DNA from: Oscillospiraceae bacterium
GTDB lineage: Bacteria; Bacillota; Clostridia; UMGS1840
Direction of reading: 5' to 3'
DNA: 64,000 bases
Assembly (NCBI GenBank): GCA_015068645.1
Contig: SVKD01000004.1
Location: 3,054 to 67,053 of the forward strand
Position 1 is the stretch's first letter; the number at the start of each line of letters is the position of its first letter. The position numbers were made by a program, and so were the translations under genes. Below, piece by piece: positions 20,193 through 61,633 of the stretch. The notes under the pieces are model-generated. The model saw nothing but the letters and a program-made list of their open reading frames with translations. It searched no databases and was not told where the DNA came from.

Positions 20193-20283
20193 TGGCGGAG
20201 AGAGAGGGATTCGAACCCTCGGTTGGGGTTAACCAACACACACTTTCCAGGCGTGCGCCTTAGACCAGCTCAGCCATCTCTCC
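20193..20283 (-). tRNA. tRNA-Ser (anticodon GGA), class II with long variable arm, CCA encoded
   Basis: Reverse complement reads GGAGAGA..CACGC-CTGGAAA-GTGTG..GAGGG-TTCGAAT-CCCTC-TCTCTCC-G-CCA. The cloverleaf was folded by hand. Confidence 0.9.
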
Positions 20284-20348: not shown

Positions 20349-20396
20349 GCTTTTTTTATAAAATTTTTAAAAAATTCTGAAAAAATAAAAATACAG

Positions 20397-20438
20397 AAAA
20401 GCGGTCTTCTGTAATTTTTTGGTAGGAGACCGCTTTTC
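20397..20438 (-). terminator. terminator closing the phage-packaging-like operon
   Basis: AGCGGTCT/AGACCGCT stem. On the minus strand it is followed by TTTTCTGTATTTTT. Confidence 0.75.
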
Positions 20439-20445
20439 AAAGATT

Positions 20446-20946
20446 TTATGAAATACTTGCTTGCAAAAGTGACGGTACTTTGTCATCAATAATTATGCCG
20501 AACAAACTTTCCGTCATTTTAATTAGCCCTGTTTTTTTATAACGGGAAATGGAACTGATGCTGAATGCAAAATGATCTGCCGTGTCTTCGATGGTATGTT
20601 CTTCTACATAGTAATACTGAAGAATTTCTCTGATGGTATCGTTAGGGATGTTTTGCATTGCATAGGTGATTTTATGAAACAGATGTTCCGCACGAGCGAT
20701 GGAAGCTTCTGTTTTTTCGATATAAGTATCGTACTCCTGCTCAAAATTTCCTTTGGATTTTTTTAAAAAGGAAATAATGGCAGTTTTTTTGTCGGTTTTA
20801 CGGGCAATTTTGGAAAATTCCAAAATATCTTTTTTTGCACTGCTAATATAATTTTCCAATGTTCGCACACTTTTTAACATTCTTTTTGTACGTTGCAGAT
20901 ACGGTTTTGCCTCACGGTATGTAAATATTTCATTCATTACTTTCAA
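20446..20946 (-). CDS. phage late-transcription activator-like protein (RinA/ArpU/sigma-70 region-4-like HTH)
   Basis: 166 aa. C-terminal IREILQYYYVEEHTIEDTADHFAFSISSISRYKKTGLIKM resembles a sigma region-4 HTH. Confidence 0.5.
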   Translation of the reverse strand: MKVMNEIFTYREAKPYLQRTKRMLKSVRTLENYISSAKKDILEFSKIARKTDKKTAIISFLKKSKGNFEQEYDTYIEKTEASIARAEHLFHKITYAMQNIPNDTIREILQYYYVEEHTIEDTADHFAFSISSISRYKKTGLIKMTESLFGIIIDDKVPSLLQASIS

Positions 20947-21328
20947 TCCTTTCTTTCATATGGTTATCGGATTCTTTTAATTCGGAAAGCACGGATTCGG
21001 CCAATGTAATTAAACGTTCCCGAAGTACTTTATCCGATAAATTCATCTCCTGACTTTCTTCTTTCGGTTCAGTTTTCGTTTTCAAAAGATAGGTTACAAA
21101 TGAATGGTTGAACCGTTTCGTCAGGGCACCGGCAATGAGCCTTGCATACACGGTGTCTCTGGCAAATTCCAGGGTATCTCTTAGTTTCTTATGTTTTTTG
21201 GCAAGGGCGTCCGCTTGTTTTGTGCTAAGGCCGTATTGCACGAAGAACTCGTCTAACACAATGTGATCTTCGTCCCTCAGCCATTCCAATAAGGCATCTG
21301 CCAAAGAACTTACGGAGAGCTTTTGCAT
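20930..21328 (-). CDS. terminase small subunit-like protein
   Basis: 132 aa. N-terminal HTH-like FFVQYGLSTKQADALAKK, then ARLIAGALTKRFNHSFVTYLLK, typical of TerS. 17-nt overlap with the next gene. Confidence 0.5.
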   Translation of the reverse strand: MQKLSVSSLADALLEWLRDEDHIVLDEFFVQYGLSTKQADALAKKHKKLRDTLEFARDTVYARLIAGALTKRFNHSFVTYLLKTKTEPKEESQEMNLSDKVLRERLITLAESVLSELKESDNHMKERIESNE

Positions 21329-21582
21329 TTGGATTTTCTCTCCTTTCGGCGATAATACTGATGCACTTTCTGAAGTTTTTCGGTAAGCTCCTCTTTTTCC
21401 AAAGTGAGCCGTCTTCTTTTTGCCATCAGTGCGATAATGCTTTCATCATACACGGTGATGGAGAGTAAATCACATAAAATTCGGGCAGTAGGGAGGGGGA
21501 GTTTGTAGTTTTCTTCCGCTACCGTCAGACGGATGATATCGCCTTCACGGTACGCCTCCACACTTGGTTCTCTAAAAGGCAC
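21310..21582 (-). CDS. hypothetical 90-aa protein with a basic C-terminus
   Basis: The ORF overlaps both the TerL stop and the TerS-like start, suggesting translational coupling. No recognisable motif. Confidence 0.5.
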   Translation of the reverse strand: MPFREPSVEAYREGDIIRLTVAEENYKLPLPTARILCDLLSITVYDESIIALMAKRRRLTLEKEELTEKLQKVHQYYRRKERKSKCKSSP

Positions 21583-22936
21583 GGCGAACGCCTCCTTTCC
21601 GTCCGGGTGACCACACTTTTTTTATTGGCGTTTTTTCACGGATTGACATCACATAGTAGCGAAGTTCATCTAAAGCATGGTCATCTTTCTTATACGGTTG
21701 ATCACTACCCGGCTGAAAACGGTACCCTTTGATTTCCCGAATCAAATTGGGACAATTTGCAAAGATGTAAAGTCCTGCTTTTCCGTCGGGATAAAGCTCT
21801 TTATCAGGATGGGAACGAATTTTTAAAGCTTCCCGTACCTGCTCAATGCCAACCCATTTGGATTTTTCCACCTTGCTGTTTACCAAAATTTTATGACGGT
21901 AAAACAAGTCAGACACGCTTTTATCTGATGCCAGGGTTTTCTGGTCGGCAGCACTGTCAATTAAGGCATGAAGATTGCCGTTTGGGTCGGTGTTCCAACC
22001 AAGTTCTTTTGCAATCTGATGAATTTCACGGGCGTGTTCTTCCACACTTTTTCCACTTTCGTAATGCTCGCGGATGACGTAAATGGTTCCGTCGGGATCA
22101 CGGGCATAAAAATGGCAGGAAGTTGGCGCATAAAATCCGGGGTCGATACTAATGTTATCGTACCATTCTTTTGGCACATCAAACGGGTCAATTACATGAA
22201 TATTTTCCCGAAATTCCTTGTAAACCAACCCTGATTTTGCCACAAACCTTCCGTACTGACGTGCTTCGCGTTCTTCTTCGGTCAATGATTCTTTCATATA
22301 TTCAATTTCTGACGGATGAAGATAAGGATTATCTTCCCATTGCATAAAAAATGTTTTAATGCCGTTGTCGTTTCGCTCATTTAAATAAATTTGCTCATAC
22401 ACCCAGCTTAAGCCGGAGAGGGGAGTCATGGTGCCCCACATTACACCCATGGTATCTACCACTCTCATCCGGCACTCGTCAAAAATTTCTTTGGGAGGTT
22501 CTTCGTCGAACCACACAAAATCAAGGCTTGTCCCTTGAAATTTGGCACGTCCCTGTTCACAGACCTTGAATCCAATCACGCTGTCTCCACCCGACTGAGA
22601 TTTCACCACAATAAAATCCAAAATAGCATTTTTCGGGTCATCTGCTTCACCACGGCGTGCCACAATTTTTTTAATCCAGGATGGTTCCAGCCACCTTAGA
22701 ATTTCTTTTTGTGCCACATCTCTTTGCACCTCGTTGGTCAAAGAAACCACCCATCCTTTCATTGGCTTGGAAATGGTGCGATAAGGATGGTTGCCTCGGG
22801 CAAACCAAACGGTTTCCACTGCCCCTGCTACTGTTTTTCCTGTACGGTTTCCACCGAAAACCCAACGGATACGGGATTGGTCTTTGTGAAATTCTATTTG
22901 CTTTTTATGGAGTCTCACATCGGTCAGGTAGGGCAT
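21572..22936 (-). CDS. phage terminase large subunit (TerL)
   Basis: 454 aa. Walker A GGNRTGKT and Walker B LDFVWFDEE. RNaseH-like nuclease half with SIDPGF, LIDSAA and DDHALDELRY. Confidence 0.88.
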   Translation of the reverse strand: MPYLTDVRLHKKQIEFHKDQSRIRWVFGGNRTGKTVAGAVETVWFARGNHPYRTISKPMKGWVVSLTNEVQRDVAQKEILRWLEPSWIKKIVARRGEADDPKNAILDFIVVKSQSGGDSVIGFKVCEQGRAKFQGTSLDFVWFDEEPPKEIFDECRMRVVDTMGVMWGTMTPLSGLSWVYEQIYLNERNDNGIKTFFMQWEDNPYLHPSEIEYMKESLTEEEREARQYGRFVAKSGLVYKEFRENIHVIDPFDVPKEWYDNISIDPGFYAPTSCHFYARDPDGTIYVIREHYESGKSVEEHAREIHQIAKELGWNTDPNGNLHALIDSAADQKTLASDKSVSDLFYRHKILVNSKVEKSKWVGIEQVREALKIRSHPDKELYPDGKAGLYIFANCPNLIREIKGYRFQPGSDQPYKKDDHALDELRYYVMSIREKTPIKKVWSPGRKGGVRRAF

Positions 22937-22998
22937 CTCATTATTATAATACCGTAGGCGACATTTGGTCAGCCGTCTGTTTCTCTCTTCCCAAAGAG

Positions 22999-23205
22999 CT
23001 AAGAATTGGGTAATGTCTTCGCGGATGTTTTTGATAATTTTGCCCCTCCTTTTTGAATTGCTTTCACACAGTTTTTACATAAAATAATCTTTCGTGACAG
23101 CGGTTCCTTTTCTTCTCCGAATAAATACTCGCCACGGTTTAAGCAGGTGGGAGTCTCACATTGCAGAACCAATTCACCACGATATTCTTTTAACACAATC
23201 GCCAA
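22999..23205 (-). CDS. small zinc-ribbon protein (TTG start)
   Basis: 68 aa. CETPTC...CKNC four-Cys arrangement. First gene after the LexA-box promoter. Confidence 0.5.
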   Translation of the reverse strand: MAIVLKEYRGELVLQCETPTCLNRGEYLFGEEKEPLSRKIILCKNCVKAIQKGGAKLSKTSAKTLPNS

Positions 23206-23215
23206 GTTTTGTTCG
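23202..23215 (-). promoter_or_regulatory. degenerate second LexA-like box overlapping the TTG start
   Basis: Minus strand CGAACAAAACTTGG against CGAAC-N4-GTTCG. One half is perfect and the other matches 3 of 5. Confidence 0.25.
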
Positions 23216-23276
23216 CCTTCTTTCTTACTTCGTTGTTTTGTTTTCTTTGTGTTTTTTGTTTCTTTTTTTCAAAACA

Positions 23277-23290
23277 CGAACAAATGTTCG
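23277..23290 (-). promoter_or_regulatory. LexA (Cheo/SOS) box
   Basis: CGAACAAATGTTCG is a perfect CGAAC-N4-GTTCG palindrome. It begins about 11 nt downstream of the -10. Confidence 0.75.
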
Positions 23291-23301
23291 CTTTTGTGTT
23301 T

Positions 23302-23329
23302 ATTATAGCACTCAATTTTTATTTGTCAA
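23302..23329 (-). promoter_or_regulatory. consensus sigma-A promoter of the TerL operon
   Basis: On the minus strand: TTGACA, 16 nt, TGcTATAAT (extended -10). Confidence 0.75.
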
Positions 23330-23411
23330 CCCTTTTTTTAAAATTTGACCAGAATCTTTATCATTTTCATAAAACTTGATAAAACGGGGGAGAAATCCCC
23401 AAAATTTCAAC

Positions 23412-23443
23412 AAAAAAAGACCGTTTTCAAACGGTCTTTTCTC
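23412..23443 (-). terminator. terminator of the small membrane protein gene, insulating the SOS promoter
   Basis: AGACCGT-tttcaa-ACGGTCT with an A-run and a T-run. A second GGGGA-gaaa-TCCCC hairpin lies just downstream on the minus strand. Confidence 0.75.
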
Positions 23444-25014: not shown

Positions 25015-25647
25015 TTATTTACAAGCAGAAAGTGCCACTTCGGAACAGGTTGCCGCATCGGGGGTATAATAATCTGCCATAATCTGTTCACAGAATTCCT
25101 GAGTAACGGGAGCGCCGCCAATCATAATGGTGACATTGTCACGGATGCCTGCCTCAGTTGCTTTTAAAATCACCTGTTTCATTTCGTTCATGGTGGTGGT
25201 TAAGAGGGCAGAGCAACAAATTACCTTGGCATTATGCTCAATGGCTTTTGCAACAAAGGTATCTGCGGTGACATCGGTTCCCAAATCAAATACTTCCAAG
25301 CCTTTTGCTTCCAGCATCATTTTGCAGATGTTTTTCCCGATGTCGTGCAAATCACCTTTTACGGTACCGATCACAGCAGTTCCTTTTTTAGATACACCTT
25401 CGGATACTAAAAGGGGACGTAGCAAGTCCACGCCCGCATTCATAGCCCGTGCCGCCATCATTACTTCAGGGATGAACACTTCATTTTTTTTAAATTTTTC
25501 ACCGATTACAGCCATACCGGAAAGCAAGCCTTCTTCCAAAATCCTTTCAGCGGCAATGCCTTCGGAAATTGCTTGGTTTACCAGTTCGGTTACTTTGGGC
25601 ACTCTTCCTCGTTGTAACACGGTGCACAGTTCTTGTAATACGCTCAT
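25015..25647 (-). CDS. cobalamin-binding (corrinoid) protein, MtbC/MtaC-like
   Basis: ORF 25015..25677. Start at MSVLQEL (ATG 25647) behind AAAGGAG. B12-binding DxHxxG motif GDLHDIGKN. Confidence 0.8.
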   Translation of the reverse strand: MSVLQELCTVLQRGRVPKVTELVNQAISEGIAAERILEEGLLSGMAVIGEKFKKNEVFIPEVMMAARAMNAGVDLLRPLLVSEGVSKKGTAVIGTVKGDLHDIGKNICKMMLEAKGLEVFDLGTDVTADTFVAKAIEHNAKVICCSALLTTTMNEMKQVILKATEAGIRDNVTIMIGGAPVTQEFCEQIMADYYTPDAATCSEVALSACK

Positions 25648-25671
25648 AAACGTCTCCTTTAAACAAAAATA

Positions 25672-25746
25672 TGGCACCCCTGGCGCGAATCGAACGCACG
25701 ATTAGTCCTTAGGAGGGACTCGTTATATCCACTTAACTACAGAGGC
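25672..25746 (-). tRNA. tRNA-Arg (anticodon CCT), CCA encoded
   Basis: Reverse complement reads GCCTCTG-TA-GTTA..TAAC-G-AGTCC-CTCCTAA-GGACT..GTGCG-TTCGATT-CGCGC-CAGGGGT-G-CCA. The acceptor stem needs two G-U pairs. Confidence 0.8.
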
Positions 25747-44568: not shown

Positions 44569-45930
44569 TTGAAGAAAGAATTAACATCCGGGAAAATCGT
44601 AGTCTTGTTGTTGGGAATTATGCTGGTGTTGTTTGCCTGGTGTAACTTGCTTGTTCCTGTTGCCGGAATGGGCGGAGCAGATTATTATCAGATTGCATCC
44701 GGCGGCTTTTGGTTAAATAGCGGTACCGGTTGTCAGACCTGGTTTTCATCTATTCCTGCTGAAAATAGTTATACCGGCACAATGAATGTGATTTTGCGGC
44801 CGTTATCTGTTGTTTTTCACGGATTCGATGTAAGAATTCTTTCCACGCTGTACTTTGCGGCTGCGTTAGTTGCATTTTTCTTCTTCTTAGCGAAAATGCA
44901 GACGGAAAAACTGTGGCATAAAGCTCTGGTTGGAGGTGTAGCAACCTTTATTTTCTGCGATTTTTCTTATCTTCTGCATTTAAATTCACTCAATGTGGAA
45001 GGTGCTTTGTACTGCTTTATTTTGGTGATGGTTTGTTTACTGTTTTCGCAGCTTTTTACCAAACCCGGTATCTGTCGCACCTTGTTATACTCAGTACTGG
45101 CATTTTTGGTTGCCGGAATGAAAACCGGATATTTTTGGATTGGAATTCTGCTGGTGGTTTGCCAGTTACCTGTGCTGATGATTAAAAAAGAGTTGTGGTA
45201 CCGTATTGTGACCGTTTTTTTGACGGTGGCAGTTTCGATTGGCTGCGTGACTTGCTTTAGTGACGGTGTTTATTACGGAAAAGAGCAGCAGAATAAGTTC
45301 CATTCTGTGTATTATGGAGTGTTAAAAGATAATGAAGATTCGTCTGCTTTGGAAAAACTGGGATTACCCAGGGAAGCAGATGCCTATGTAGGCAAAAGCG
45401 TGTATGAAGTGGATTCATCTGTGGTGGAAAACGCTTCGTTGAATGTTGGTTATTCCAAGGTGATTTCCTATTATTTGACTCACCCGGGAACATTCCTGAA
45501 AAAATTAGAATGCAGTGCTGATAACGGTTATGAAATTCGTCAGCAGTACAATTCCAACTATCCCGAATATCATAAAATCAAACACGGTTTTGACGGTTAC
45601 AGTGCCTTAAAACGTCGTGTGATGCAACCGGATTTATGGTTTGTGTTAGTATTTTTGGGAGCTGTTATTGCTTTTTCTGCTGTACAAATGAAAAAACAGA
45701 ATGATGAGAAGAAGAAAGCATATTATCTTACAATGATTCTTATTTGCACCACAACATTAGCCGTTTTTTTGGCACCTGTTATCATCAGCGGAGAAGCTGC
45801 CTTGGGAGCTGAACTGTTTTTGTATAATTTATTCTTTGATATCGTTCTTTGCTACGTTATCGTTGGCGGAACTATTATGATTTGCAAACGTCGTGAAACT
45901 ATTCAGAAAAAATATGGCGTAGAGCAATAA
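44569..45930 (+). CDS. polytopic membrane protein with a soluble loop (possible glycan-related transferase), TTG start
   Basis: 453 aa. GGAGGTG lies 7 nt upstream of the TTG. About ten TM helices. Confidence 0.6.
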   Translation: MKKELTSGKIVVLLLGIMLVLFAWCNLLVPVAGMGGADYYQIASGGFWLNSGTGCQTWFSSIPAENSYTGTMNVILRPLSVVFHGFDVRILSTLYFAAALVAFFFFLAKMQTEKLWHKALVGGVATFIFCDFSYLLHLNSLNVEGALYCFILVMVCLLFSQLFTKPGICRTLLYSVLAFLVAGMKTGYFWIGILLVVCQLPVLMIKKELWYRIVTVFLTVAVSIGCVTCFSDGVYYGKEQQNKFHSVYYGVLKDNEDSSALEKLGLPREADAYVGKSVYEVDSSVVENASLNVGYSKVISYYLTHPGTFLKKLECSADNGYEIRQQYNSNYPEYHKIKHGFDGYSALKRRVMQPDLWFVLVFLGAVIAFSAVQMKKQNDEKKKAYYLTMILICTTTLAVFLAPVIISGEAALGAELFLYNLFFDIVLCYVIVGGTIMICKRRETIQKKYGVEQ

Positions 45931-59596: not shown

Positions 59597-59644
59597 GAAT
59601 CGTGTATTTGAATGACTCCAAATTACCGGGAAAGGTGGATTGCT

Positions 59645-61633
59645 GTGAAAAAAATAATAAAGTTGGAATGGCTTGTTTGTATATGCTCATTGCCGGTACT
59701 ATATTTTTTATTCTCCAGATTAAGCACATTTTTATCGGTAGTTTTCGGTTTTTGTTGCACAGAATCTCTTCGTTGGATTGGAATTATAATATCAGAGCTT
59801 CTTGTGGTCGCTTTTCGAAATAATTTGAAAGAATATCTGTTTAAAGACATCAGTGCCAAAACAGGGAGCGTTGCTTTTTGCTTGTCATTTCTTGTTTCTT
59901 TCCTGTTGCAATCCGTTGTTTTGCGAGGATGCACGCAAGGGAGTAATATGAGTTGTCTCATTGGATCTTCTTTGCTGTTCGGTGCTTTTTTGATTCTTTT
60001 TTTCCGAAATATCAAATACTTTTTTGGTAGATTGAAAATGGTTTCTGTTTCCAAAAAAGATGTCTTTTTTGCAGGCTCTGTTTTTCTTGTTGTCAACCTG
60101 ATTGCAGTGTTATATTGCATGTTCTTAAAAAAAATTTTCACCTGGGACAATGCAGGCTATTTTACCAGTGTGCATCAGTATAATACAATGTTTCCCGGCA
60201 TTTCTTACTGGAAGGAAGTCTATAACTCTATTTTTACCACAGATTATAATTACGTGATTATGATTCCTGCCAGTCTGTTTTGTAAACTTTTCGGGGAATC
60301 CAGATTGGTCTTTGTATTATCTATCATCAACTGTTATATCTATCCTGTTTTGATGTTGATATACTTCTGTGCGAAACGGCACTTTCATGTAAGCAACTGG
60401 AAAATTATCTGTGTTTATTTATGTCTTTGGTATTTGATGTTTGCTGCCAATACGGGTTTTATCGATGTTGGTGGAATTGCGCCTGTACTGTTGGCATTGA
60501 TACTATACTATTTTGGTCGCAGAGAAAAACAAGGAATCCTTATCGGTGTGCTGCTGTCGCTTTCTGTATACTTACGAAGATGGTATTCCTTCTTTGCCTT
60601 AAGCTTTGTAATTACTGTGTTTCTTCACGGTATCACCAAGAAAAATCTGAAAGCATTTTTCGAAATCTTAGTCTCATTTACCTTTGTGTTGCTGTTTTTT
60701 ACCCAAGATTTTGTCAGCGAAAAGTTAATGGCGGATTATCGACATATTTATGCTGCTTATCAGCTCGGTATCCGCACCGATGTGATGATTTTCACTCGTT
60801 ATTACGGTGTGATGATGACCGCTTCGGTATGTCTGTATACGATTGCAAAACAAGTTTTTAACCGTAAAAAACTACATAGAGAAACATTTGTTTTATTCCA
60901 GACCATTTTGATGTTTACGTTGTTTGTGGGTGTTCAGACCCACGGACAGCAACATCTTTGCTTGTATGTTCCTGCCTTCTCGGTATTACTTTTATCTCTA
61001 ATGAAACAGGTCAACCGAAAATTTGCAACGGTAGCAGTGGCAGCCGCTTCTGCTTTTCAGACGGTGAATACTTTTATTCCACGAGTGCAGCCAACCTCCA
61101 TTTCGGAGATAAAGCAGGCAGCGATATTTCCCAATTATTCGTCCTATCCTCCCGTTGACCCAAATGTTGAAGGGATTTTAAAAGTGACTGCTTATATGGA
61201 TAAGGAAATCGGAGAGAAGGGGAAACGTGTTTGCTTTTTGGCATCTTCCCTAAAACTCAATTATGAAACATTAAAAAATGCAGAAATTTCTGTGTCGGTG
61301 CAACCACCGTCACAAATTGAAAGATCAACTTATTACTACGGTATTTCAGATGTGGATAAGCGAAACGGATTATCGGAAAGTTTGTTCTGGACAGATTATA
61401 TTTTGGTACCGTCCACCTTGCAGATTCACTTAGCGGAAGAAGAACAGCGGGTGATTGCCGTTCCGTATTACGAAATCACGGAACAGGTGGGGATCGGTAC
61501 TGCTTATGAAAAAGAAGAAATATCGTTTCCCTTGGCAGACGGCACCGAAATCTATTTATATCGAAAAATCCGTGAGGTGACTCCTGAAGAAATCGAAGCC
61601 TTACGGGAACGGATTTTTAATCCTGCTCCATAA
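59645..61633 (+). CDS. large polytopic membrane protein, GT-C/ArnT-like glycosyltransferase candidate, with a C-terminal soluble domain
   Basis: ORF 59612..61633. GTG 59645 (MKKIIKLEW) sits 6 nt after GAAAGGTGG. ATG 59612 would be almost leaderless with no RBS. Confidence 0.55.
   Translation: MKKIIKLEWLVCICSLPVLYFLFSRLSTFLSVVFGFCCTESLRWIGIIISELLVVAFRNNLKEYLFKDISAKTGSVAFCLSFLVSFLLQSVVLRGCTQGSNMSCLIGSSLLFGAFLILFFRNIKYFFGRLKMVSVSKKDVFFAGSVFLVVNLIAVLYCMFLKKIFTWDNAGYFTSVHQYNTMFPGISYWKEVYNSIFTTDYNYVIMIPASLFCKLFGESRLVFVLSIINCYIYPVLMLIYFCAKRHFHVSNWKIICVYLCLWYLMFAANTGFIDVGGIAPVLLALILYYFGRREKQGILIGVLLSLSVYLRRWYSFFALSFVITVFLHGITKKNLKAFFEILVSFTFVLLFFTQDFVSEKLMADYRHIYAAYQLGIRTDVMIFTRYYGVMMTASVCLYTIAKQVFNRKKLHRETFVLFQTILMFTLFVGVQTHGQQHLCLYVPAFSVLLLSLMKQVNRKFATVAVAAASAFQTVNTFIPRVQPTSISEIKQAAIFPNYSSYPPVDPNVEGILKVTAYMDKEIGEKGKRVCFLASSLKLNYETLKNAEISVSVQPPSQIERSTYYYGISDVDKRNGLSESLFWTDYILVPSTLQIHLAEEEQRVIAVPYYEITEQVGIGTAYEKEEISFPLADGTEIYLYRKIREVTPEEIEALRERIFNPAP

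Follow-up and report, generated by a model that had tools for sequence, protein, structure and literature searches.

Terminase genes in satellites, phages, and gene-transfer agents

In operon I of Staphylococcus aureus pathogenicity islands (SaPIs), which is regulated by LexA, a gene for a small terminase subunit (terS) is carried together with phage-interference genes, including modulators of the late activator of the helper phage (PMC5052747, PMC3152322). Here, we describe a five-gene cassette on the minus strand at positions 20446-23329 of a 64,000-nt stretch of DNA from an Oscillospiraceae bacterium (assembly GCA_015068645.1, contig SVKD01000004.1). We refer to the whole stretch as the window, and everything said of the source genome rests on these 64 kb. 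The cassette encodes, in this order, the Zn-ribbon protein ZnR, the large terminase subunit TerL, the small protein ORF90, the TerS-like protein ORF132, and the sigma-region-4 protein ORF163, and is closed by a terminator. It shares with operon I of SaPIs and other phage-inducible chromosomal islands (PICIs) the combination of LexA control, predicted in the case of the cassette, and a small terminase of its own in a chromosomal element devoid of capsid genes. Products of SaPI operon I act on the helper, including its late-gene activator, and are expressed when the SOS response induces the helper; the cassette can be likened to this operon by its predicted LexA box and its gene content. However, SaPIs also possess an integrase, the regulators Stl and Str, Xis, a primase-replicase, an origin, and att sites, and they excise, replicate, and borrow the TerL of their helper. 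None of these features was found in the cassette, which has its own TerL and a RinA-like factor and appears to be vertically inherited. Since the integrase, repressor, replication functions, and att sites that define PICIs and SaPIs were not found, the cassette would work like part of a satellite without being one.

Phage late modules, composed of a RinA/ArpU activator, TerS, TerL, and the portal protein, have in common with the cassette TerL, a TerS-like protein, a sigma-region-4 activator, and ZnR-type proteins encoded beside TerL. Each of its five genes is of phage descent or tied to phage modules. The cassette differs from phage late modules in the absence of portal, capsid, tail, and lysis genes, in its order of ZnR, TerL, ORF90, TerS, and activator, and in a host-type promoter with predicted direct LexA control and a TerL apparently translated from an ATC codon. 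Gene-transfer agents (GTAs) and PBSX-type defective prophages resemble the cassette in that they are phage derived, chromosomally fixed, vertically transmitted, under purifying selection, and linked to stress, but they encode heads and tails with the terminase in the structural cluster, whereas structural genes were found neither in the window nor in the flanks of the orthologous loci. Capsid-forming PICIs (cf-PICIs) and other TerL-bearing satellites, like the cassette, encode large and small terminase subunits of their own, distinct from those of the helper. cf-PICIs are additionally equipped with genes for capsid, portal, and head-tail connector proteins, for an integrase, and for replication, all of which are absent from the cassette. 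Searches of the literature for orphan, stand-alone, or domesticated terminases returned no published account.

Conservation and predicted SOS control of the cassette

The five open reading frames (ORFs) are co-oriented, overlapping, and tightly packed and form one compact operon. This agrees with an earlier reading of this DNA, made from the sequence only, which had proposed a stand-alone packaging operon with both ends inside the window. Both ends were located: a sigma-A-type promoter at 23302-23329 (minus strand; TTGACA, 16 nt, and (TG)TATAAT, matching the consensus at 12/12 positions with a TG extension), and a terminator at 20385-20449 (minus strand; inverted repeat I4), consisting of a 12-bp G+C-containing stem and a T run directly 3' of the ORF163 stop codon. 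The remaining flanking signals of the sequence-only reading were found as described. They comprise two terminator hairpins upstream (23385-23440), which belong to the preceding gene, and a tRNA-Ser(GGA) gene downstream (20193-20283, minus strand), which has its own promoter (20348-20320) and is not shown to belong to the module.

TerL (21572-23035, minus strand) matched both domains of the Terminase_6 family above the curated gathering cutoffs by which Pfam assignments were judged (Terminase_6N, 50 bits versus 22; Terminase_6C, 27.1 bits versus 22.6), which answers the search for terminase families proposed with the sequence-only reading. It further matched phrog_2 at 6.5e-35, and its alignment profile matched the solved terminases 5OE8 and 5OEA in the PDB at 3e-9. 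The motifs GGNRTGKT, DFVWFDEE, SIDPGF, LIDSAA, and DDHALDELRY are all present. In a 17-sequence alignment that includes phage homologues, the Walker B core WFDEE does not vary, nor do the nuclease aspartates D265, D327, D419, and D423, and GGNRTGKT (Walker A) is kept in at least 90% of the sequences. On these matches, the assignment of TerL as the large subunit of a Terminase_6-type terminase, with predicted ASCE ATPase and RNaseH-like nuclease domains, is secure, and the earlier view that the protein is intact holds.

A comparison with related genomes revealed the same operon, together with its promoter and LexA box, in at least nine related lineages of uncultured, Oscillospiraceae/Ruminococcaceae-like bacteria, which are represented by the window organism and L006/L009, L007, L010, L090, L091, L096, L182, and L183 (L numbers denote loci of related genomes or phages, and P numbers denote individual relative proteins). 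An identical operon was present on other contigs of the same organism. Among the orthologous operons, TerL is ~82-93% identical over its full length, and the accessory proteins are 55-90% identical. Pairwise NG86 estimates of the ratio of nonsynonymous to synonymous substitution rates (dN/dS) were 0.04-0.08 for TerL, 0.08-0.14 for ZnR, ~0.14 for ORF90, ~0.10 for ORF132, and 0.09-0.10 for ORF163. Where estimable, dS amounted to 0.9-2.9, comparable to the values for the flanking RuvA, RuvC, and ArgH, with some pairs of ORF90, ORF132, and ORF166 (the version of ORF163 with a longer start) saturated. The ORFs are intact in eight of nine lineages, the exception being the TerL gene of L183 (L183:8250-9740), in which a conserved Trp codon is changed in frame from TGG to TGA (LEPG*IKKI); this cassette adjoins an IS3 element and a serine recombinase gene. 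The nonsense codon may stem from a sequencing error or mark true decay in this lineage. Judged from these estimates, purifying selection is shown to maintain the operon in a clade of uncultured Oscillospiraceae/Ruminococcaceae-like Clostridia. The earlier argument against a decaying remnant is borne out by low dN/dS in all five genes across at least nine lineages, and by a promoter and LexA box as conserved as the best-conserved coding DNA.

The LexA (Cheo) box CGAACATTTGTTCG (23277-23290, unstranded) is an exact CGAAC-N4-GTTCG that begins 12 nt downstream of the -10 hexamer, at the point where transcription is expected to start. It is the sole match in the 64 kb even if one mismatch is allowed, with a chance expectation for an exact match of 0.07 per window. 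The box was found in 9/9 lineages, those with rearranged contexts included, either as CGAACATTTGTTCG or as the single-mismatch variants CGAACATTTGTTTG and CGAACATATGTTTG. The promoter, TTGACAAAT...TGnTATAAT, is likewise kept in all nine, with a mean nucleotide identity of 0.87, and promoter and box together reach 0.87-0.89, the same level as the best-conserved stretches of TerL coding sequence. Given the established Firmicutes consensus, we infer that LexA binds here, and the dedicated SOS control proposed in the sequence-only reading can be pinned to this predicted operator.

Despite rearrangements on either side, the cassettes appear to trace back to one ancestral locus, which points to vertical inheritance rather than mobility. 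Its ancestral order is argG, argH, tRNA-Arg, a B12-binding protein gene, a variable segment, the cassette, tRNA-Ser, a DUF5685 gene, and a DnaJ-domain protein gene. The upstream side of this context is retained in L182 and the downstream side in L183; in L096, only tRNA-Ser and a 145-aa ORF remain. The tRNA-Ser(GGA) gene follows the cassette in L001, L007 (12639-12729), and L096 (10652-10742) but not in L006, L010, and L091, and nucleotide similarity spans this gene, its promoter, and its terminator even in L096, where the context otherwise differs. In L006, a tmRNA gene lies 2.4 kb downstream of the cassette in place of tRNA-Ser. Thus, the placement of the cassette 5' of tRNA-Ser, stressed in the sequence-only reading, is correct but incomplete, as the tRNA gene is a conserved neighbor in several lineages.

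The absence of other phage genes extends to the relatives. Pfam scans of 30 other proteins of the window detected no other phage gene, and thus no integrase, replication, capsid, portal, tail, or lysis gene, as had been claimed; only housekeeping and sporulation families were matched (among them GalKT, MreBC, PBP2, Gpr, SpoIIP, UvrC, RecJ, RelA, AlaRS, SecDF, and Tgt), and two ORFs had no match. Portal, capsid, tail, and lysis genes were likewise missing from the flanks of the orthologous loci, inspected over +/-10 kb in the eight other lineages, and no integrase or replication gene of its own was found near the cassette in any of the nine lineages. The sole recombinases near any cassette belong to separate mobile elements inserted upstream in L183. 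A full prophage around the cassette, which the sequence-only reading had considered possible in close relatives, was present in none of the relatives examined. No family match to a master repressor, a primase-replicase, or an origin module was obtained among the five genes or their neighbors. Repeats flanking the unit were considered as terminal repeats or att sites and rejected, since they are AT-rich and only 75-78% identical, and were judged to be due to chance.

The family is narrow. Searches with the sigma-like and TerS-like proteins led to 18 and 41 protein clusters, respectively, all at least 54% identical, and a close TerL was found in only two GTDB species representatives.

Gene products and their relatives

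Gene callers shorten TerL to 344-454 aa in most genomes. In the window it is called as 21572-22936, and the sequence-only reading gave a length of 454 aa, which has to be revised. The frame is open for 46 codons 5' of ATG 22936 and encodes ...FLALWEERNRRLTKCRLRYYNNE..., a segment that overlaps ZnR and aligns with the N-terminus of full-length phage TerLs (~490-510 aa). In the orthologues, the amino acids of this segment are conserved and the DNA changes are mostly synonymous. An ATG equivalent to 22936 is missing from several of them, and in most the whole segment is devoid of ATG, GTG, and TTG. Every lineage possesses GGAGG or GGGGG followed after 9-10 nt by ATC, an arrangement that falls within the 3'-terminal part of ZnR and is read in the -1 frame; in the window, this Shine-Dalgarno sequence (GGAGG, 23045-23049, minus strand) lies within the ZnR coding sequence 9 nt 5' of the proposed start codon. 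In L010, the TerL frame opens merely two codons before the ATC. The Shine-Dalgarno-ATC arrangement conserved in all lineages, together with a conserved N-terminal segment lacking a usual start codon, suggests that TerL likely starts at the noncanonical ATC at 23035-23033, giving a protein of ~487 aa in which the methionine of ATG 22936 is internal. Just 5' in the TerL frame, the window reads ATG TAA; two very close relatives, P0270 and P0268, read ATG CAA, which results in a canonical 502-aa ORF. A near-cognate start codon would limit TerL to low amounts compared with ZnR. We also considered a -1 frameshift that would join ZnR to TerL, with slippage on the A-run in TCAAAAAC and the upstream Shine-Dalgarno-like element as a stimulator of the dnaX type, but rejected it, since L010 (ATCAAG) and L096 (ATCAGC) lack the A-run, the ATC and Shine-Dalgarno sequence are universal, and the frame of L010 is too short upstream. 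Apart from the shortened gene models, annotation does not reveal the terminase: NCBI labels both the TerL and the TerS-like protein of the window "hypothetical protein" (MBE7018707.1 and MBE7018709.1).

The C-terminal tail of TerL (21572-21640 in the window) is basic. RKGGVRRAF, KKGKGVKRAF, and KKKNKRKKRLV are such tails among the TerLs of the cassettes, L089, and L099, whereas phage relatives end in acidic, aromatic tails, e.g., ...DDDDDTRPGDRGFFAM. The basic tail may mark a changed binding partner.

ORF132 (20930-21328, minus strand) is encoded two genes downstream of TerL and not immediately upstream, as is usual for TerS. It scored 20.4 bits against GP3_package (cutoff, 29.4) and had no direct PHROG match. 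An exhaustive profile search retrieved 85 distant relatives at E<=1e-3; among the 60 relatives scanned, 29 matched phrog_3064 ("terminase"), 18 phrog_309, and 7 phrog_606 (both "terminase small subunit"). An AlphaFold model with a predicted local distance difference test score (pLDDT) of 72 comprises five N-terminal helices, which may form a domain of the DNA-binding type, and a long C-terminal helix; a Foldseek search against the PDB returned no significant match. Residues 22 to 85 are almost invariant. By the annotation of its relatives, ORF132 is a divergent TerS-like protein, as predicted in the sequence-only reading. At 21134-21193 within this gene, where no genes overlap, identical codons make up 0.72-0.78 of the pairs with the same amino acid, compared to a gene average of 0.57. 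This modest rise in synonymous constraint may reflect a signal in the DNA or RNA, for example a pac site, or noise.

ORF163 (20446-20937, minus strand; 20446-20946 with the longer start, ORF166) is a sigma-70 region 4 protein similar to RinA, ArpU, and DUF1492 proteins. Its start is most likely ATG 20937 (163 aa), which gene callers chose in every orthologue. With 22.8 bits (6.7e-5), it fell just below the Sigma70_r4 cutoff of 24.1, and it matched phrog_36 at 5e-13 and phrog_248 at 1e-7. The AlphaFold model is of high quality (pLDDT, 92; predicted template modeling score, 0.80). Its top PDB matches are nearly all sigma factors or isolated sigma-4 domains, none with E<0.07; sigma-4 domains superimpose with a root-mean-square deviation of 1-3 Å and a probability of 0.99. 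In BFVD, 11 matches at E<=1e-3 were mostly phage sigma-70 region 4, DUF1492, and transcriptional activator proteins, with TM-scores of up to 0.71. The curated ArpU model was not reached (TIGR01637, 18.2 bits versus a cutoff of 43.1), and the gene is the last in the operon, not upstream of terS like those of RinA/ArpU activators at the head of late operons. Taken together, phrog_36, the model, and the BFVD neighbors identify ORF163 as a phage-type, sigma-region-4 activator-like factor, which upholds the late-activator-like helix-turn-helix (HTH) protein of the sequence-only reading. Further relatives share 44-48% identity. The one seen in context, P0136 (45%; L093), is encoded among early and replication genes of a real phage with genes for DNA polymerase A, VapE, and SNF2. 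The terminase genes of this phage follow ~8 kb downstream, and its TerL is unrelated by BLAST.

ZnR (22999-23205, minus strand; 68 aa) displays a CxxxxC...CxxC pattern with four invariant Cys residues and starts with TTG in the window and ATG in the orthologues. In 12 prophage or viral loci, weak hidden Markov model relatives (E of 7e-5 to 8e-3) were located ~400-500 nt downstream of TerL. ORF90 (21310-21582, minus strand) is a small conserved protein with a GTG start and an 11-nt overlap with the TerL stop. It has no Pfam, PHROG, or PDB relative and was found beyond the cassette only beside the 76%-identical TerL of L089. Sequence profiles of ORF90, ZnR, and ORF163 yielded nothing significant in the PDB.

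The next-closest TerLs (53-66% identity) reside mostly in ordinary prophages; prophages with a 53-60% identical TerL are common in metagenome-assembled genomes (MAGs) of Clostridia. TerL-related loci were classed as phage or not from listings of their ORF architecture; portals differ between loci, and that of L008 was unusable as a probe. The prophages are laid out as TerS, TerL, and ORFs of ~620, ~210, and ~390 aa, and their TerS is of a classical type, e.g., ...IFWLKNRRPDKWRDK in L008. Homologues of ORF90, ORF132, and ORF163 were not detectable in the prophages with the closest TerLs. In IMG/VR, profile scans found no relative of the TerS-like or sigma-like genes, and the best TerL was 58% identical; in GenBank phages, the best TerL was ~30% identical, and there was no match to the sigma-like protein. 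A metagenome scan for the cassette returned one 1.5-kb contig; metagenomes that hold the cassette also contain viral contigs with a 52-55% identical TerL. The cassette thus combines phage-derived parts into a mosaic that was found in no catalogued virus. The sequence-only reading had described an inverted gene order, which is only partly meaningful. The TerS-like gene and the activator gene do follow TerL, but given the different TerS of the closest phage TerLs and the lack of detectable ORF90 and sigma homologues there, the cassette is better described as a mosaic than as a known arrangement turned around.

Four further loci contain TerL without structural genes. At L099:3276-4733, a solitary, motif-intact TerL (61-64% identical) with the same type of basic tail and no other phage genes lies between an Amidase_3/sporulation protein SipL pair on one side and, on the other, a Cu_amine_oxidN1/VanY gene in a group of cell-wall and metabolic genes. 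It has no LexA box, and a hairpin precedes its ribosome-binding site. In a rough neighbor-joining tree, it is sister to the clade of L089 and the cassettes. The TerLs of the other three loci are 55-58% identical. L013:9189-11389 comprises a LacI regulator, a 178-aa ORF, and TerL; L047:7456-11320 comprises two ORFs and TerL, after which genes for cation efflux and a Mur ligase come next; and at L076:7109-13214, GroEL is succeeded by a phrog_36 sigma-like gene, TerL, and a 129-aa ORF, beyond which an integrase and an XRE repressor are encoded on the other strand. Small orphan terminase modules thus seem to be recurrent in Clostridia. Among them, selection was estimated for the five-gene cassette only.

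In the window, the cassette is flanked by genes for RuvABC, ArgGH, the B12-binding protein, DUF5685, and the DnaJ-domain protein. At L007:6111-8571, an XRE HTH protein, an 81-aa ORF, an ImmA-like M78 peptidase, a DUF4417 protein, and two small ORFs are encoded directly after tRNA-Arg(CCT), with the B12-binding gene between this inserted block and the cassette. A protein judged DUF4417-like by eye is encoded at L089:1995-2450, directly after a ZnR, TerL, and ORF90-like trio, which hints at a link of DUF4417 to this terminase lineage. The longest ORF of the B12-binding protein (window 25015-25746; GTG 25677) overlaps tRNA-Arg(CCT) (25672-25746), and the gene is likely the 210-aa version starting near 25647, as called in other genomes. 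Elsewhere in the window, two large ORFs, at 44569-45930 (453 aa) and 59612-61633 (673 aa), have no Pfam match at E<=1e-4, although the housekeeping region around them is otherwise well annotated.

Possible functions of the cassette

The best reading, which we hold tentatively, is that of a helper-dependent packaging and interference module. In the undamaged cell, LexA would shut the strong promoter. DNA damage, which is also the signal that induces prophages, would derepress the operon, and the cell would then produce ZnR, a little TerL owing to the ATC start, ORF90, its own TerS, and the late-activator-like factor. Unable to build particles on its own, the TerS/TerL holoenzyme might act in trans on the procapsids of an induced or infecting helper phage, which is the most economical reading given that no capsid is encoded nearby. 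Instead of the phage genome, DNA recognized by the TerS of the cassette would be packaged, presumably from the chromosome at or close to the cassette. The sigma-like factor might either turn on the late genes of the helper or compete with its activator. The net outcome would be phage interference and transduction of host DNA, a logic that corresponds to SaPI operon I plus TerL, minus the functions for integration, excision, and replication. Potential helpers exist, as prophages with a 53-60% identical TerL and the normal TerS-TerL-portal-capsid layout are common in Clostridia MAGs, and viral contigs with a related TerL come from metagenomes that hold the cassette.

Several observations weigh against such a helper-dependent module. 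The cassette looks vertically inherited and not mobile, judging by its conserved locus, which is easier to reconcile with a host function than with a selfish satellite. The basic tail of TerL, which sets it apart from its phage relatives, means that docking to a helper portal is not assured. Neither a helper phage nor a pac site was identified within the 64 kb of this genome, and the role proposed for the sigma-like factor is a guess. No PADLOC defense-system model matched the cassette. Unless the L183 nonsense codon is a sequencing error, it implies that the module is dispensable in at least one lineage.

Alternatively, the cassette might provide packaging and regulation for a dispersed GTA or a PBSX-like defective prophage, in which ORF163 switches on distant head, tail, and lysis genes after SOS induction and the cassette contributes the terminase for particles that benefit the host. 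In favor of this, the last gene of the operon encodes a late-activator-like sigma-region-4 factor with a nearly invariant DNA-binding helix region, and the overlap of all genes leaves no obvious target promoter within the operon. Vertical inheritance and purifying selection are also as expected for a domesticated element, and the literature offers precedents in GTAs that are split over several loci and tied to LexA and SOS. However, known GTAs keep the terminase together with the head genes, and the structural genes in question were seen neither in the window nor in the flanks of the eight other lineages. We regard this alternative as unlikely.

An anti-phage or abortive system is another option, and one to which we give little weight. 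Following damage or infection, TerL, as a nuclease or translocase guided by TerS, ZnR, and ORF90, would cut or sequester replicating phage DNA, or the activator would mistime late transcription, and no productive packaging would take place. The intact nuclease and ATPase motifs and the predicted LexA box are consistent with this, and the ATC start would hold a dangerous nuclease at a low level. SaPI operon I itself serves mainly to interfere with the helper, and the other small TerL modules are similarly found between housekeeping genes in other Clostridia. Besides the negative PADLOC result, the neighborhood of the cassette lacks typical defense-island genes. In lambda, the N-terminal region of the large terminase subunit contacts the small subunit. 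The complete pair of TerS and TerL with the conserved N-terminal segment suggests that real packaging has been retained, which speaks against a purely destructive role.

It is improbable that the cassette was co-opted for a cellular task in the DNA damage response unrelated to phages, such as the processing or translocation of damaged or concatemeric chromosomes. Its predicted membership in the LexA regulon and a neighborhood rich in repair genes, with ruvCAB ~5.4 kb away and uvrC and recJ elsewhere in the window, would agree with this, as would the related solitary TerL of L099, which occurs without accessory genes in its sporulation and cell-wall neighborhood. However, the retention of TerS and of a phage late-activator homologue would be hard to explain, the distribution is limited to a narrow clade, and one lineage carries the nonsense mutation in TerL. 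Finally, a neutral, not yet decayed remnant of a prophage once located between tRNA-Arg and tRNA-Ser, to which the position between two tRNA genes, the extra XRE/ImmA-like/DUF4417 block directly after tRNA-Arg in L007, the nearby tmRNA gene in L006, and the stop codon in the L183 TerL might be attributed, is scarcely credible and largely refuted by the selection analysis, given dN/dS of 0.04-0.14 at saturating dS for all five genes, intact ORFs in 8/9 lineages, and the high nucleotide identity of promoter and operator.

It is possible, albeit doubtful, that the cassette represents an undescribed class of packaging-only, integrase-less, nonreplicating, SOS-fired terminase operons that load helper-phage capsids in situ in gut Clostridia. 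The five-gene cassette and the L099, L047, L013, and L076 modules would then be variants of one strategy, namely, a TerL that may or may not be joined by TerS, a late activator, and small cofactors. Packaging into borrowed capsids would make the cassette the most reduced helper-dependent element known, with a full terminase and a late activator but no functions for excision, replication, or particle formation, and it would provide its host with a built-in engine for lateral transduction and phage interference. It would further imply that bacteria, or elements resident in them, can hold a terminase under direct LexA control and that, in abundant uncultured gut and rumen Clostridia, DNA damage may be linked to host-directed transduction and phage interference.

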